NCBI GenBank assembly: GCA_000092065.1
Contig: CP000597.1
Source of the DNA: Ostreococcus lucimarinus
Lineage: Eukaryota
Reading direction: 5' to 3' (one strand)
Length of the DNA stretch: 64,000 nt
How positions within the stretch are numbered: position 1 is the first letter of the stretch; every line of letters begins with the position of its first letter. Both the position numbers and the translations under genes were made by a program. The notes under the pieces are model-generated. The model saw only the letters and a program-made list of their open reading frames with translations. It had not been told where the DNA came from and made no database searches. Shown here piece after piece: positions 12,734-18,294 of the stretch.

Positions 12734-13372
12734 CGCCTCCCGCCCCGCGCGCGTCGTCGCGCGCGCCGCACCGCGCCGCCACGCGCGCCGTTTCCGGGTT
12801 CCGCACTCGCCCACGTCATCGGATAACTCGCGCGCGTCGCGCGTCGCGCGACGCCGCGCGCGACGCCGCGCGATCCGCGGGCGGCGCGAAAAATTCCCAC
12901 GCCTCGTTCTCGAGGTCGTCACGCACCGGCGGCCGCCATGTCGAGCGACGTTCGTCTCGTCTCGTTGTGCGGACGCGCGACGCTTTTCGCGCGTCGCGGC
13001 GGCGGCTCTCCGCAAACGACGCCGCGTGCGCAAACAGTGACGCGCTAAAAACCTGCGCGCGACGCGCGCACTTTTTCGTCTCATCGGCCTTTAAGACATC
13101 GCGATGCGATATCGCGCGCGCGTTCGTCCATTATGACTCATTCGACGGTTCGCGACTCGTCGATTGATTCGCCGCTAAAATCCGTCCCCTTGGCGGCGGC
13201 GCCCGGTCGCGGCGCCGCATTCCTCGACCGACGCGCGCGACGCGCGGGCGTGGACGCGCGCGCGGACGCGAACGAACGCGAGCGAACGATCGAGACGCCT
13301 CGCGATCGCGACGACCGCGCTCGAGCGGGCGAGCGGGCGCGAGGGGACGACGGGAACGGGCGACGCGTGACG

Positions 13373-13734
13373 ATGGCGCCGCCGCCGGCGAGCGCGGTGG
13401 ATGACGCGCGACTCGGGCCGTTGCTGGCGCCCGTGGAGGAGTATCTGCGCGCGTGTGGACTGAATAAGACGGTGCAAGCGATGCGGAGCGAACGGAAGCT
13501 GAAGGCGCACCGGACGCTGGTGGAGGCGAGCGAGGCGGCGGGGGCGGACGCGAGCGAGGGCGGCGCCGAGGCGCTCGTGGAGGCGTGGGAGGAGAGTCGA
13601 GGGGCGAAGCGCAAGGCGAATGATTCTAGCGGAGGGTCGGCGGCGAAGAAGGCGAAACCGGCGGATTCGAGCTCGTCGAGCGAGTCGGGGAAGAAAAGCG
13701 CGAGTGGGTCGGGTTCGAAGTCGTCGTCTTCGTC

Positions 13735-13770
<36 letters not shown>

Positions 13771-14996
13771 GGAGGAAGCGAAGAAGGAAAAGTCCAGCTC
13801 CTCGTCGTCGAGCAGCAGCAGCAGTAGTAGCTCGGAGAAAAAGGAGAAGTCGAGCGCATCTTCGAGCGATAGCGAATCGGACAAGAGCAAGAGCAAGAGC
13901 AAGAGCAAGAGTAGCTCTTCGTCTTCGTCTTCGTCTTCGTCTTCGTCTTCGTCTTCGTCTTCGTCTGAAAAACAGGAGGAAGCCAAGAAGGATGACTCGT
14001 CTTCGTCTTCGTCGTCTTCGTCGTCTTCGTCGTCTTCGTCAGAGAAGAAGAAAGAAAGCTCTTCCTCCTCATCGTCGTCCTCCTCCTCCTCTTCCTCGTC
14101 GGAAAAGAAGGAAGAAGCCAAGAAGGATTCCTCCTCTTCCTCCTCTTCCTCCTCTTCCTCCTCTTCCTCCTCTTCCTCCTCTTCCTCCTCTTCTTCTTCC
14201 TCGGAACAAAAGAAGGAAGAGACCAAGGATGACGCCTCCTCGTCATCTTCTTCTTCATCATCTTCTTCTTCTTCTTCTTCCTCGGAAGAAAAGAAGGAAG
14301 AGGAGAAGGATGACTCTTCGTCTTCCAGCAGCTCTTCGAGCTCTTCCTCAAAGTCCAAGTCCAAGTCCAAGTCGTCCTCATCTTCATCTTCATCTTCATC
14401 TTCATCTTCTTCGGAAAAGGCGGAAGAAGAGGCGAAGAAGGATGATTCTTCCTCGTCATCAAGCTCTTCAAGCTCCTCCTCCGACGCGAAATCTGAGTCC
14501 AAGTCGTCTTCGTCGTCCTCGTCTTCGTCTTCCAGCAGCTCGTCGAGCTCGAGCGACAAGGTACGCAAGGATAGCGCGAAGGGAAGCAAGAGCGCGCCTC
14601 CGGGCGAGAAGCAACCGGGTGTGCCTTTTCAAAGGTGAGAGCCTTCTTGTCCTCGGTGGCGCGTTTGACACCCTCATCGATGCATCGACACTCGTCTCGT
14701 TTGAAAAACTCGCGACTATTAACTCGTTTCTGAGACTGACGGCGACGCGTTATTCGTTTTCTTCACCGCACAGAGTTAATAGCGCGGAATGGTTGGGCAA
14801 GAAAGGCTCGTGGGATATGTCTTATGAAGGTACATTCGGTGATGCGGGATACGGCGCCAAGGCGCAGGAAGTCCTCGGACAAGTGCGTGGCGCGCGTTTT
14901 CAACACGAGAAGAACAAACGTAAACGAAGCTACTTTGGCGGAGCCATTGACGACAGCGCCGTGAATTCTATTAAATTTCAATCGGATAGCGAATAA
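13373..14996 (+). CDS. Nopp140/SRP40-like nucleolar phosphoprotein (LisH motif, Ser-acidic/Lys-basic repeats, SRP40_C domain), two exons: 13373..14634 and 14774..14996.
   Basis: LisH-like LGPLLAPVEEYLRACGLNKTVQAM near the N-terminus. About 330 aa of alternating poly-Ser and EEKKEE blocks follow. After splicing, the C-terminus is GSWDMSYEGTFGDAGYGAKAQEVL...RFQHEKNKRKRSYFGGAIDDSAVNSIKFQSDSE, matching the conserved SRP40_C tail. The intron runs 14635..14773 (AG|GTGAGA ... CACAG|A) and restores the frame. Confidence 0.6.
14635..14773 (+). other. Spliceosomal intron (139 nt) in the Nopp140-like gene.
   Basis: The donor GTGAGA lies at 14635-14640 and the acceptor CAG at 14771-14773. The in-frame TGA at 14636-14638 is removed by splicing, and exon 2 continues in the only frame carrying the SRP40_C-like tail. 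Confidence 0.6.
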
Positions 14997-15054: not shown

Positions 15055-16536
15055 TTAAAACGCTACGTCTTCCTCTAATTCGAGCTCCAAACCGTCCAGG
15101 CCCGCCAAAAGATCGGCTTCGTCCAACGCCTTTCGGAGCTTTCTATTCTCCGTCCTCAGCGCTGCGATGGAGATCTCCTGAGATTTGATCTTCTTTCTCG
15201 CATCTCTCAACTCTTCGCGCTCTCGAAGGCGCAACCACTGCGAATCTTCGTCCATGGTCCCGCTCCAAAAATCGTTACCGAAGTCAGACGCCATCGTCGA
15301 CATCGCCTCTTCCTCTTGCGGCGACCTCCTCTTCGGCGCGATCGGCGGCCCCGCGAGTCCAATTTTTGCCATCGACGGCGGAGGCGCACTCAATGTCGCG
15401 CCTCCCTCTCCTATTCGTGCCTGCGCTTCGGTTTGCGCGGACACTAAAACCGCGAGCTGCAACGGGACGACGACGACGGCGGTTAAAATCGAAACCACCG
15501 TCGCCACGCGCCCTTGCGCCGTCGTCGCCTCGAAAGGTTGTCCGATGCCCGTCAGGGTCAAAAAACTCCAATAAATCGCGTCGCCTACGTCCGAAATGTT
15601 CGGATTCGTGTCGACTTCTAAATCATAAAACAACTCCCCGCTGATTAAAAACACGCACAAAAACTCCACGGCGACGGCGACGACTTTTTCGTTTTGCGTC
15701 TTCTCCCGCTTCGTCGTCTCGCGCGTCTTCTCTCCGTCGAGATCTAACACCCGGAGCAAGCGCAGCGCTCGAAACAAACGCAACGGGCGGAACTGCTCCG
15801 TCGCGCCCTGCCCCGCCCCCCCGATCCCGACTAAACTCAAGATGAACCCAAACGTCGGCAGCAGCGACAAAAAATCGATGAGCGCCACCGGCGAGCGCAA
15901 ATACTTCAACTGAAACTCCTCGCTCCACGCCCGCACGACGTACTCAAACAAGAATATCGCCTGCAAGCACGATTCCGCGCGTTCGATCCCCCCGTCCGCC
16001 AGCGCCGGCGCGAACGCCTTCGGCACGAATTGCGGCAGCACGTACTCCAGCGACACGCCTCGCGTCGCCGCCTCCGCCTCCAACGACTCGAATCCCGCGA
16101 TCACGAACACCAGCGCCGTCGTCCCGACCGTCCATATCCCGCTCGAATCCGCCAATTTCAAGCAATCCCTCGTGCGCTTCGCCAGCGACTGCGACGTCCA
16201 CTCCGCGAGCTCGAACGCCGCGCGCTCCGGGTCGTCGTCGTCGTTCTCCCGCCCCGTCCCTCGCGCGCCGCCGTCGACGTCGTCGAACGAGTCGTACGTC
16301 CCCGACCCGAAAAACATGCGTCTGACGTCTCTCGCGCGCCGTCGCGCGTTCGCGCGCGTCCCGCGCGCGTCCCGCGCGTCCCGCGCGCGTCTCGCCGTCG
16401 CCGTCGCCGTCGCCGTCGTCGCGTCGTCGCGCCGTCGCGTCGCCGTCGCGCGCGCCCGCGCGCGCGCGCGCCGCGCGCCGTCGCGCGCGACGCCGCGCGC
16501 GCCGATCTCGACGCGCGCGCGCGCGCGCGCCGCCAT
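15055..16536 (-). CDS. Voltage-gated cation-channel-superfamily protein (6TM with an S4 voltage sensor and a P-loop) carrying a non-canonical selectivity filter.
   Basis: S4-like RPLRLFRALRLLRVLDLDG; pore helix and filter AIYWSFLTLTGIGQPFE; S6 VATVVSILTAVVVVPLQLAVLVSA; a C-terminal coiled coil follows. The ORF-track start at 16611 is TTG. In-frame ATGs lie at 16536 (chosen) and 16317. Confidence 0.55.
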   Translation of the reverse strand: MAARARARVEIGARGVARDGARRARARARATATRRRDDATTATATATARRARDARDARGTRANARRRARDVRRMFFGSGTYDSFDDVDGGARGTGRENDDDDPERAAFELAEWTSQSLAKRTRDCLKLADSSGIWTVGTTALVFVIAGFESLEAEAATRGVSLEYVLPQFVPKAFAPALADGGIERAESCLQAIFLFEYVVRAWSEEFQLKYLRSPVALIDFLSLLPTFGFILSLVGIGGAGQGATEQFRPLRLFRALRLLRVLDLDGEKTRETTKREKTQNEKVVAVAVEFLCVFLISGELFYDLEVDTNPNISDVGDAIYWSFLTLTGIGQPFEATTAQGRVATVVSILTAVVVVPLQLAVLVSAQTEAQARIGEGGATLSAPPPSMAKIGLAGPPIAPKRRSPQEEEAMSTMASDFGNDFWSGTMDEDSQWLRLREREELRDARKKIKSQEISIAALRTENRKLRKALDEADLLAGLDGLELELEEDVAF

Positions 16537-16941
16537 CGCCGCCGTCTGCCGCGCCGCGCGCGCGCGCCGCGCGCGATGGGTCGCGAACCCGGCCGATCGC
16601 CCGTCGCCCAACCTCGCGCCGTCGATCGACGCCGCGCGCGCGAAACTCGCCTCGACGGGTCGCGCGCGCGCGTCGTGACGTCACGGCGTTTCGCGGTTAT
16701 AGCGCGCCAGGCCCCCTCCGTCGGCACCGTCGCGTGATTTTCGCATCGTTTCATAGCGTCATTCACATCGTTATACGCGCTCAATCCGTTATCCGTCGCC
16801 GTGTGCCACGACTCGATGCGTGTAACTGTAATTACACTGTATGCGCAGCCACGCGTGTCCGAACGGGTCGTCTCGCGTCGGTTCGGCGCGCGCGCGCGTC
16901 GCCGCGCCCCGCACACGGCGACGCGCGCGACGACGGCGACG

Positions 16942-18294
16942 ATGTACGCCCTCCGACGACGCGCGCTCGGCGCGGCGCGCGAACAAATCCACGCGCGTCT
17001 CGCTCGCGGCGCGTCCGCGGCGAACGCGACGGCGGCGACGACGCGCGACGTCGCGATGGCGACGACGCAGGGGGGCGTGCGCGCGAAGAGCGCGGGCGCG
17101 CACCACCTCGGCGACTTCAGCGATAAGGGGTTCCACGATCGCCCGCTCGCGCTCGAACACAACGGTGGATTGAAGGAGTACTCCGTCGTGTACACGGATC
17201 GAGCGATCAATCACATGTCGCCGGTGTTCTGCGAGACGATGAAGAACATCGACGGGATGATGAAGCGGGCGTACAACGCGAGCGGCGTGGTGATCATGCC
17301 GGGAAGCGGGACGTACGGGATGGAGGCGGTCGCGCGACAGTGGTGCAGCGGGAAAAAGGCGCTCGTGATTCGTAATGGGTACTTTAGCTATCGATGGACG
17401 GATATTTTTGAGCAAACGCAAATCCCGAGCGAGACGATCGTGATGCGAGGACGCGCGGTGGACGACGAAAAGACGCCGGCGTTCGCGCCACCGCCCTTGG
17501 CGGAGGTCGTGGAGATGATCAACAAGGAAAAACCCGCGGTGGTGTTCGCGCCGCACGTGGAGACGTCGACTGGGATCATTCTGCCGGATTCGTACATCAA
17601 GGCTGTGGCCGACGCCGTGCACGCGCACGGGGGGCTGTTCGTGCTCGATTCCATCGCGAGCGGCACGATTTGGGTGGACATGAAGGCGACCGGCGTGGAC
17701 GCCATCTTGAGCGCGCCGCAAAAGGGCTGGACTGGTCCGGCGTGCGCGAGCGTGATCATGCTCGGCGAACGCGGCGTGCACGCGACGCGCAACTCGCAAT
17801 CCACCTCCATGGTCATCAACATGCGCAAGTGGCTCGAAGTCATGGATGCCTACTTGGCGGGCGGGTTCGCGTACTACACCACCATGCCCACCGACGCGTT
17901 GACTTTGTTCGAACGCGCGGCGATGGCGACCGAAAAGGTTGGTTTCGACAAGGTCAAGCAAATGGCATGGGATCTCGGCACTGAGTGCCGCAAGATGATG
18001 GCGAGCAAGGGATTGAAATCCGTCGCCGCCAAGGGGTTCGAGGCGCCGGGCGTCGTCGTGTCGTACACGGATGACGCCACCATGTTCGCCAAGTTCAAGT
18101 CTAAGGGTTTCCAAATCGCCGCGGGCGTTCCGTTCATGATCAACGAACCCGCCGGCAACAACACTTTCCGCATCGGTTTGTTCGGCTTGGACAAAATCAT
18201 GAACAAGGACAACTGCATCAACACCCTCGAGCCGACGTTGGATGAAATTTTACGCGAAAACGCCGAAGCGGCCGGCGCCGAAGCCGCCTCTTAA
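16942..18294 (+). CDS. Class V (fold-type I) PLP aminotransferase of the AGXT/SGAT/PhnW family, with an organellar presequence.
   Basis: VVFAPHVETSTGIILPD; FVLDSIASG; SAPQKGWTGPA, the Lys-containing PLP site; a C-terminal FRIGLFGLD as in AGXT LRIGLLG. The ATG at 16942 begins MYALRRRALGAAREQIHARLARGASAANA. The ORF-track start at 16801 is GTG. Confidence 0.65.
   Translation: MYALRRRALGAAREQIHARLARGASAANATAATTRDVAMATTQGGVRAKSAGAHHLGDFSDKGFHDRPLALEHNGGLKEYSVVYTDRAINHMSPVFCETMKNIDGMMKRAYNASGVVIMPGSGTYGMEAVARQWCSGKKALVIRNGYFSYRWTDIFEQTQIPSETIVMRGRAVDDEKTPAFAPPPLAEVVEMINKEKPAVVFAPHVETSTGIILPDSYIKAVADAVHAHGGLFVLDSIASGTIWVDMKATGVDAILSAPQKGWTGPACASVIMLGERGVHATRNSQSTSMVINMRKWLEVMDAYLAGGFAYYTTMPTDALTLFERAAMATEKVGFDKVKQMAWDLGTECRKMMASKGLKSVAAKGFEAPGVVVSYTDDATMFAKFKSKGFQIAAGVPFMINEPAGNNTFRIGLFGLDKIMNKDNCINTLEPTLDEILRENAEAAGAEAAS

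Follow-up and report, generated by a model that had tools for sequence, protein, structure and literature searches.

Voltage-sensor channels of early-branching green algae with a G-x-x-Q-P filter motif, as represented in Ostreococcus lucimarinus

Introduction

Which ions should be expected to pass through a channel whose voltage sensor resembles that of a potassium channel and whose filter does not? The question is raised by an open reading frame (ORF) at 15055..16611 on the minus strand of a 64,000-nucleotide stretch of Ostreococcus lucimarinus contig CP000597.1 (GenBank assembly GCA_000092065.1), the whole of which is referred to here as the window. A preliminary description of this DNA had read the ORF as a six-transmembrane (6TM) voltage-sensor channel with a non-canonical pore filter, TLTGIGQ, and possibly a lineage-specific channel of unknown selectivity. 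We find that the ORF is a complete 6TM channel subunit and a member of the voltage-gated ion channel (VGIC) superfamily, and that it belongs with proteins best described, from their sequences, as a distinct green-lineage family with its own filter signature, YW-x-x-LTLT-G-I-G-Q-P-F-[ED], and modular C-termini. By analogy with better known pores, we lean towards a voltage-gated cation channel that is not K+-selective. Residue numbers are those of the 518-aa ORF counted from its TTG codon, unless 493-aa numbering is stated.

Structure of the channel subunit

The product matches Pfam Ion_trans (PF00520; E 8.5e-18, 64.9 bits against a cutoff of 25) over aa 210-397, which covers S2 to S6, and Ion_trans_2 (E 6.6e-7), both above the gathering scores and far beyond what chance would give. 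Its best relatives by sequence in the Protein Data Bank (PDB) are Kv1.3, Kv2.1 and KCNQ2 (E ~2e-8). An AlphaFold2 (AF2) monomer model of the core (aa 129-397; 88-sequence alignment) was obtained with a predicted local distance difference test score (pLDDT) of 90.8 and a predicted template modelling score (pTM) of 0.82. It consists of two pre-S1 helices (pLDDT ~95), S1 to S4, a loop, S5, a 13-residue pore helix, a 10-residue loop and S6, with a re-entrant P-loop between S5 and S6 (pLDDT ~95), and thus bears out the 6TM layout first proposed together with the Pfam assignment that had been suggested as its check. A full-length AF2 model from a 14-sequence alignment was poorly packed (pLDDT 60) and gave uninformative Foldseek matches; the core-only model was used instead. 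The parts of the gene are listed below, invariance referring, where so marked, to an alignment of 14 diverse family members (A1) or to a further alignment (A2).

15055..16536, minus strand: coding sequence in its most likely form, 493 aa plus stop from the first ATG (MAARARARV...), single exon
ATG at 16317, minus strand: alternative start (MFFGSG..., 420 aa)
16318..16536, minus strand: N-terminal Arg/Ala/Thr-rich extension, 73 aa, net charge +18, sequence not conserved
16141..16227, minus strand: cytosolic pre-S1 helices (ERAAFELAEW...LKLADSSG), with R, F, E, W, L, D and G invariant in A1 and A2
16081..16137, minus strand: S1 transmembrane helix, aa 159-177 (AF2 core helix 31-56)
15922..15978, minus strand: S2, aa 212-230, with outer acidic E213, charge-transfer Phe F220, E223 and R227
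15829..15894, minus strand: S3, aa 240-261, with invariant D246, aligning with Kv1.3 NLIDIVAIIP
15739..15792, minus strand: S4 voltage sensor, aa 274-291, with five invariant Arg
15688..15738, minus strand: S4-S5 connection, hydrophilic, its length varying among orthologues (a gapped block in A1)
15619..15687, minus strand: S5, aa 309-331, containing VAVEFLCVFLISGELFYDLE, with V-x-VEFLCVFLI invariant (AF2 helix 178-204)
15553..15588, minus strand: pore helix, aa 342-353, VGDAIYWSFLTL (AF2 helix at core residues 214-226, pLDDT ~95)
15529..15552, minus strand: selectivity-filter segment T354-G-I-G-Q-P-F-E361, ungapped against KCNQ2 and NaK/NaK2CNG and invariant across the family
15436..15516, minus strand: S6 inner helix, aa 366-392, with invariant VVVP-x-QL (AF2 helix 237-268)
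15244..15435, minus strand: linker from S6 to the coiled coil, not conserved and of variable length, pLDDT <50, probably disordered
15106..15243, minus strand: C-terminal coiled-coil helix, aa 457-502, its heptads conserved and one core position taken by an invariant Asn (N489)

To all appearances the voltage sensor is complete. S4 carries the string RPLRLFRALRLLRVLDLDG at aa 275-293, in which Arg occupies every third position (R275, R278, R281, R284 and R287, or R250/253/256/259/262 in 493-aa numbering), and all five are invariant in A1. The charge-transfer centre, comprising F220 and E223 in S2 and D246 in S3, is likewise invariant in the family and aligns with the FSFE and LID motifs of Kv1.3, where Kv1.2 has its charge-transfer residues F233, E236 and D259 (Kv1.2 numbering). 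S2 as a whole aligns with Kv1.3 IWFSFELLVR, the E, F, E and R being invariant. In these respects the protein is built like Kv1, Kv2, Kv4 and KCNQ/Kv7 channels, with which it shares the 6TM layout, the spacing of S4 arginines, the Phe-x-x-Glu of S2 with the Asp of S3, the pore-helix pattern [FY]W-x-x-x-T-L-T and the S6 Pro, a residue almost invariant across the alignment with canonical outgroups included. It differs from Kv channels in having no T1 domain. A match to the NCBIfam model of archaeal hyperpolarization-activated K+ channels (29 bits against a cutoff of 300) was too weak to indicate gating polarity.

The pore and its filter

The sequence TLTGIGQP lies at aa 352-359 (window 15535-15558). 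In the AF2 model the pore helix ends at T354, and the TLT of the motif is the helix end, as in K+ channels; G355-I-G-Q-P359 stands in the place of T-V-G-Y-G, with Thr replaced by Gly, Tyr by Gln and the second Gly by Pro. The HMMER alignment to KCNQ2 is ungapped here (TLTTIGYGD versus TLTGIGQPF), setting G355-P359 opposite T-I-G-Y-G, and the pore helix aligns with Kv1.3 DAFWWAVVTMT, so that the motif does lie in the P-loop, as had been supposed. Compared with the nearest canonical relatives the family's loop is one residue shorter (TLTTVGFgD versus TLTGIGQ-P), whereas against NaK2CNG chimeras the alignment runs without a gap all the way into S6, so that the filter loop has the length found in CNG channels. 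Three positions past Gln358 stands E361, an invariantly acidic residue (E or D).

In the register of the K+ signature T-x-G-[YFL]-G-[DE] the sequence reads G-I-G-Q-P-F. In the BacNav, EukCat and CatSper groups the filter is of the form T-x-[ED]-x-W and includes an acidic ring and a Trp; the corresponding stretch here reads TLTGIGQPFE, which does not follow that pattern. EukCat and BacNav, Na+/Ca2+ channels of marine phytoplankton, are like the Ostreococcus protein in being single-domain and voltage-gated and, by the prediction made here, in lacking K+ selectivity. A coiled coil also forms the C-terminal end of BacNav channels.

A parallel is provided by the short filters of the CNG type. P-loops taken from PDB chains and aligned with ours on the pore-helix Trp (W) compare as follows.

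Human CNGA1: LYWSTLTLTTIGETPPP, Gly at W+9, Glu at W+10
AtCNGC1: FWWGLQNLSSLGQNLKT, Gly at W+9, Gln at W+10
MtCNGC15b: LWWGLRNLSSLGQGLLT, Gly at W+9, Gln at W+10
Ostreococcus channel: IYWSFLTLTGIGQPFEA, Gly at W+9, Gln at W+10

With the animal CNG channels (CNGA1 and TAX-4, T-I-G-E-T-P) the protein shares the length of the P-loop and a nearly identical pore helix (LYWSTLTLTTIGETPPP against IYWSFLTLTGIGQPFEA), with Gln in place of the filter Glu and Gly in place of the first Thr. With the plant CNGCs (AtCNGC1, AtCNGC5 and MtCNGC15b, S-L-G-Q-[NG]) it shares a Gly-Gln step equally far from the pore-helix Trp, as well as a place in the green lineage, and in MtCNGC15b the corresponding Gln forms the constriction (PMC12284214). 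The preliminary description was therefore right that the filter is not T-V-G-Y-G, whereas its separation of the motif from CNG filters needs refining, given the CNG loop length and the plant-CNGC Gly-Gln. The likeness to the short CNG-type filter (T-I-G-E-T or S-L-G-Q-x) concerns the working of the pore and not membership: a Pfam search gave no cNMP_binding match in the channel at E up to 1, and without a cyclic nucleotide-binding domain (CNBD) it is not a CNG, CNGC or HCN channel. Unlike animal CNG channels it has no C-linker either, S6 being followed by the disordered linker and the coiled coil, and its S4 and countercharges look fully functional, not like those of an immobilised sensor-like domain.

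Family and distribution

In a word-indexed search, YWSFLTLTGIGQPF[ED]A was present in 117 of the 120 homologues listed, down to 38% identity, the other three being one protein with a single T-to-A change and two fragments without the region. On the sequence evidence, the filter motif is not a degenerate copy. A search of 1.84 billion cluster representatives with a profile of the core recovered 31 proteins at E <1e-30 and 453 at E <1e-10. G-x-x-Q-P occurs in every region-bearing protein down to ~E 1e-34 and in several below, and from ~E 1e-27 down the matches are mostly canonical TLTTVG[FY]GD channels. Most G-x-x-Q-P members read GIGQP; variants are GNGQP in Prasinococcus, GNEQP and GNDQP in Pyramimonas and metagenome relatives, and TFTGIGQPFS in Chlorokybus. 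None of the family members aligned carries GYG, GFG or GLG, and hence no orthologue or paralogue has the canonical filter that the preliminary description had named as the mark of a misread, divergent region.

A neighbour-joining tree, drawn without support values, unites the G-x-x-Q-P proteins in one clade, with the Ostreococcus channel inside clade A, a dinoflagellate group as sister and canonical K+ channels as outgroup. The Ostreococcus channel shows the pattern common to the family, [YW]W-x-x-x-[TS]-[LF]-T-G-x-x-Q-P-[FY] with a full S4. The dinoflagellate-type sister sequences P0251 (Symbiodinium CAE7781490.1) and P0245 also have a full S4 and carry yet another non-canonical filter, VFTSQGAPFP.

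Three subfamilies can be told apart by their C-terminal domain, which is a coiled coil, a zinc ribbon or a SAM domain. The coiled-coil subfamily holds the Ostreococcus channel gene with its Ostreococcus and marine-metagenome relatives. The zinc-ribbon subfamily (CxxC...CxxC) includes O. tauri XP_003074067.1 and members from Pycnococcus, Pseudoscourfieldia and Chlorokybus; the matches of the ribbon to Pfam DZR and Zn_Ribbon_1 are weak and below thresholds. The O. tauri paralogue (P0323, XP_003074067.1), like P0182-P0197, P0340 and P0191, has the same GIGQPFE filter, and the subfamily is further characterised by a conserved S4-S5 segment, LDRSxDSVLFG, and a C-terminal CxxC-x10-12-CxxC motif resembling a zinc ribbon. 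In the Pyramimonas group (P0198, P0192 and P0199, from Pyramimonas MMETSP1081 and relatives) the filter reads T-G-N-[ED]-Q-P, which places an acidic residue within it, and the protein ends in a SAM domain (Pfam SAM_1 and SAM_2, E ~1e-11), a combination unusual for a 6TM channel.

The members that bear a name belong to Mamiellales, Pycnococcus, Prasinococcus, Pyramimonas and Chlorokybus, and the family has so far been met only in early-branching green algae. Relatives were absent from the 185,579 prokaryotic species genomes and the IMG/VR viral contigs that were scanned, and the six exact back-translated matches to TLTGIGQPF in bacteria were all out of frame or in unrelated proteins. This distribution fits the lineage-specific channel that had been suggested. 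The genes are already in databases under generic or misleading names: the nearest named relative, Ostreococcus tauri XP_022840552.1 / CEG00734.1 (74% identity), is entered as "Ion transport 2", and XP_003074067.1 as "Voltage-dependent potassium channel" despite having no GYG. The searchable literature yielded no occurrence of TLTGIGQ, LTGIGQP or TGIGQPF, matches to GIGQ there being unrelated, and nothing on the family, whether functional or comparative, came to light in searches for algal channel surveys.

Selectivity and gating

The non-K+-selective cation channel that we favour would consist of four such subunits, each contributing a voltage sensor and a quarter of the pore. Without the Tyr-Gly pair and with the shorter loop, the two outer K+ sites could not form as they do in KcsA-type filters, which would leave a short filter built from the G355, I356 and G357 carbonyls, with a cap formed by four Gln358 side chains in a ring, while E361 may supply an outer negative ring. 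Such a pore would hardly discriminate between Na+ and K+, and Ca2+ may pass as well. CNG and NaK2CNG pores of this length are non-selective among monovalent cations (in part PMC10761061). For Ca2+ the precedents oppose each other: in MtCNGC15b, with PCa/PNa ~1 and PNa/PK ~9, the Gln347 side chains constrict the pore and Q347E abolishes the Ca2+ current (PMC12284214), whereas in animal CNG channels neutralising the filter Glu abolishes both Ca2+ current and Ca2+ block (PMC10761061). Ca2+ permeability is for this reason not readable from the sequence.

Domain-swapped channels such as Kv and KCNQ have a conserved amphipathic helix as S4-S5 linker (PMC10761061). In the Ostreococcus channel the connection is instead a variable hydrophilic segment, modelled as a helix-loop-helix with the lowest pLDDT of the core (66-74) and predicted to be a loop and not an amphipathic linker helix. 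The core model fits non-domain-swapped channels (Slo, HCN and CNGC) best; chains of the domain-swapped Kv4, KCNQ and Kv1 superpose on it over only 113-154 residues and not as a whole. Because an S4-S5 segment that is hydrophilic and of variable length in clade A ill fits a conserved linker helix, and because the superposition on Kv chains is partial, a non-domain-swapped architecture is predicted, as in animal CNG channels. With a loop of variable length joining S4 to S5, movement of S4 would be transmitted to S6 by way of a non-domain-swapped contact of the sensor with the pore. The protein differs from Slo (Slo2.2 and Slo1) and HCN channels in having neither an RCK gating ring nor a CNBD, and identity is ~14%. 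Slo channels and HCN1 keep the GYG filter.

Several points weigh against a channel without K+ selectivity and with this architecture. The selectivity argument is one of analogy, and the analogies conflict on Ca2+ (animal CNG Glu versus MtCNGC15b Gln); among solved structures the nearest by sequence are Kv and KCNQ channels, which are K+-selective, and the annotation of the O. tauri paralogue likewise reads K+ channel; the non-swapped arrangement derives from an AF2 model of a monomer; and the invariant core Asn of the coiled coil is atypical for four-helix bundles.

A less likely alternative is specifically a voltage-gated Ca2+-entry channel, in which rings of Gln358 and of the outer E361 select for or favour divalent cations in the manner of the plant-CNGC Gln ring. 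The Gly-Gln in register with AtCNGC1, AtCNGC5 and MtCNGC15b speaks for it, as do the constriction lined by Gln347 in MtCNGC15b and the loss of Ca2+ current in Q347E (PMC12284214), the invariant acidic residue three positions past the Gln, and the G-N-[ED]-Q-P of the Pyramimonas relatives with its acidic residue in the filter itself. Picoalgae would then have a single-domain voltage-gated pathway for Ca2+.

It is unlikely that the channel is K+-selective after all, the reading implied by the paralogue's database name. Either G355, I356 and G357 would have to offer enough K+ sites through their carbonyls, or TLTGIGQ, in a register shifted by two that makes a G-x-G available, would have to mimic T-T-V-G-Y-G-D. 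The best sequence matches are indeed Kv1, Kv2, Kv4 and KCNQ, and canonical TVGFGD channels come out of the profile search as the nearest outgroups. These outgroups, however, share TLT in the unshifted register, where the signature T-x-G-[YFL]-G fails at three of five positions, and the shifted register requires a pore helix two residues shorter, whereas the AF2 helix end at T354 matches the ungapped alignment. The loop is also one residue short, like those of the non-selective CNG and NaK2CNG pores, and the name "Voltage-dependent potassium channel" on the O. tauri paralogue is an automatic annotation.

That the protein is a non-conducting or modulatory subunit, or a sensor with a dead pore, active only in heteromers with the zinc-ribbon paralogue or other channels, is highly improbable: silent Kv subunits exist, and at least one further gene of the genome, a paralogue, encodes this filter as well, but a dead pore would drift, and no part of this protein is more conserved than the pore helix, filter and S6, which are invariant over ~118 sequences and three subfamilies, with dN/dS of 0.17.

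As a natural experiment in filter design, the family combines a K+-channel-like scaffold and a working-looking sensor with the loop length of CNG channels and the Gln of plant CNGCs. The role of a Gln ring should be directly testable in it, because animal CNG and plant CNGC channels give opposite answers in the literature. Since minimal picoalgal genomes keep the channel, in at least two paralogous forms and under strong purifying selection, it is probably of physiological importance. The label of the O. tauri paralogue as a voltage-dependent potassium channel is corrected by these results, and surveys that count algal Kv channels by their S4 motif may include G-x-x-Q-P proteins.

Terminal regions

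The C-terminal coiled coil noted at the outset is real and conserved. It is helical at aa 457-502 in the full-length AF2 model (pLDDT 74-92), and clade A conserves there the block ELxDARxRLRAFExEVDALRAENxxLR, whose invariant residues are E, E, L, N and L; L, I and L recur at heptad spacing, and Asn489 stands at a core position, the heptads being assigned by inspection. By analogy with many tetrameric channels, it probably assists subunit assembly.

In each of the three subfamilies, every full-length member has an N-terminal extension of ~40-180 aa that is non-conserved, strongly basic and acid-poor. In clade A the extensions measure 41-122 aa, with net charges of +7 to +18 and 2-11% D+E, and end in a basic junction, R-x-[MFYA], directly before the first conserved block. 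Such an extension may be an organellar presequence, and is equally compatible with a disordered cytosolic tail derived from GC-rich DNA. We regard it as a rather doubtful proposition that the G-x-x-Q-P proteins are plastid or mitochondrial voltage-gated channels of early-diverging green algae, non-selective or Ca2+-permeable; if so, they would be the first voltage-sensor P-loop channel family assigned to an algal organelle, with a previously undescribed filter chemistry. Should the extensions be transit peptides, this family would be one to consider for those organellar cation conductances of algae that are as yet unidentified.

Gene model and genomic context

The ORF is present at 15055-16611 as first given; that it begins with TTG is an artefact of the way in which ORFs were listed. 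Read from the first ATG, at aa 26 (16536), it gives a 493-aa protein, and a second candidate, at aa 99 (16317), is the start chosen in many metagenome gene calls. The start codon is thus ambiguous, with ATG 16536 the most likely. In its favour, the O. tauri orthologue CEG00734.1 opens with MGARARARV where the O. lucimarinus protein has MAARARARV, and lacks a Met at the downstream candidate position, and G+C at third codon positions (GC3) is 0.90-1.00 across aa 18-98, that is, through the extension. The 493-aa form is 100% identical to P0001 (493 aa), which is frequent in marine metagenomes. As the ORF aligns end to end with its orthologues, a single exon is indicated. Comparison with O. tauri gives the dN/dS of 0.17 cited above at a dS of ~1.06.

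The view that aa 99 is an obligatory start was rejected. It had rested on a 1-nt indel that throws the upstream ATG out of frame in a closely related contig (L001; ENA ERZ10646592 contig_18458), the indels of which are probably assembly errors because compensating frameshifts also sit inside its conserved gene. That contig encodes at L001:3001-4269 an 89%-identical 'orthologue' of the channel. Its divergence comes mostly from a pair of frameshifts that compensate each other in the stretch linking S6 to the coiled coil, where the shifted sequence is an alternative reading frame of the window, probably through assembly error rather than biology. The 5' part of the channel gene (window 16320-16560, minus strand, compared with L001:2780-3000) is low-complexity DNA of (GC)n/(GCG)n type, in which single-base indels interrupt otherwise near-identical DNA over ~400 nt. 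The G+C content of the window lies between 51 and 70% when taken in 2-kb windows.

No second copy of the channel was found within the 64-kb window. O. tauri contig CAID01000018.2 and a 373-kb metagenome contig retain synteny with the window, each having a class-V aminotransferase gene upstream of the channel gene and divergent from it. In the window this gene is at 16939-18294 on the plus strand (Pfam Aminotran_5, E 1.1e-7); its product has a basic N-terminus, MYALRRRALGAAREQIHARLARG..., that resembles a presequence, and the two genes share an upstream region of ~400 bp if the channel starts at 16536. Downstream, a convergent gene with an SRP40_C domain is found in the window and the 373-kb contig, and the O. 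tauri gene at that position has no Pfam match on record. The window copy is an SRP40/Nopp140-like gene at 13133-14996 (plus strand), consisting of a long Ser/Glu/Lys low-complexity ORF at 13133-14638 followed by the SRP40_C domain (E 1e-19) at ~14770-14996. As the domain is in a different frame from that ORF, the gene needs a short intron or a change of frame near 14620-14770.

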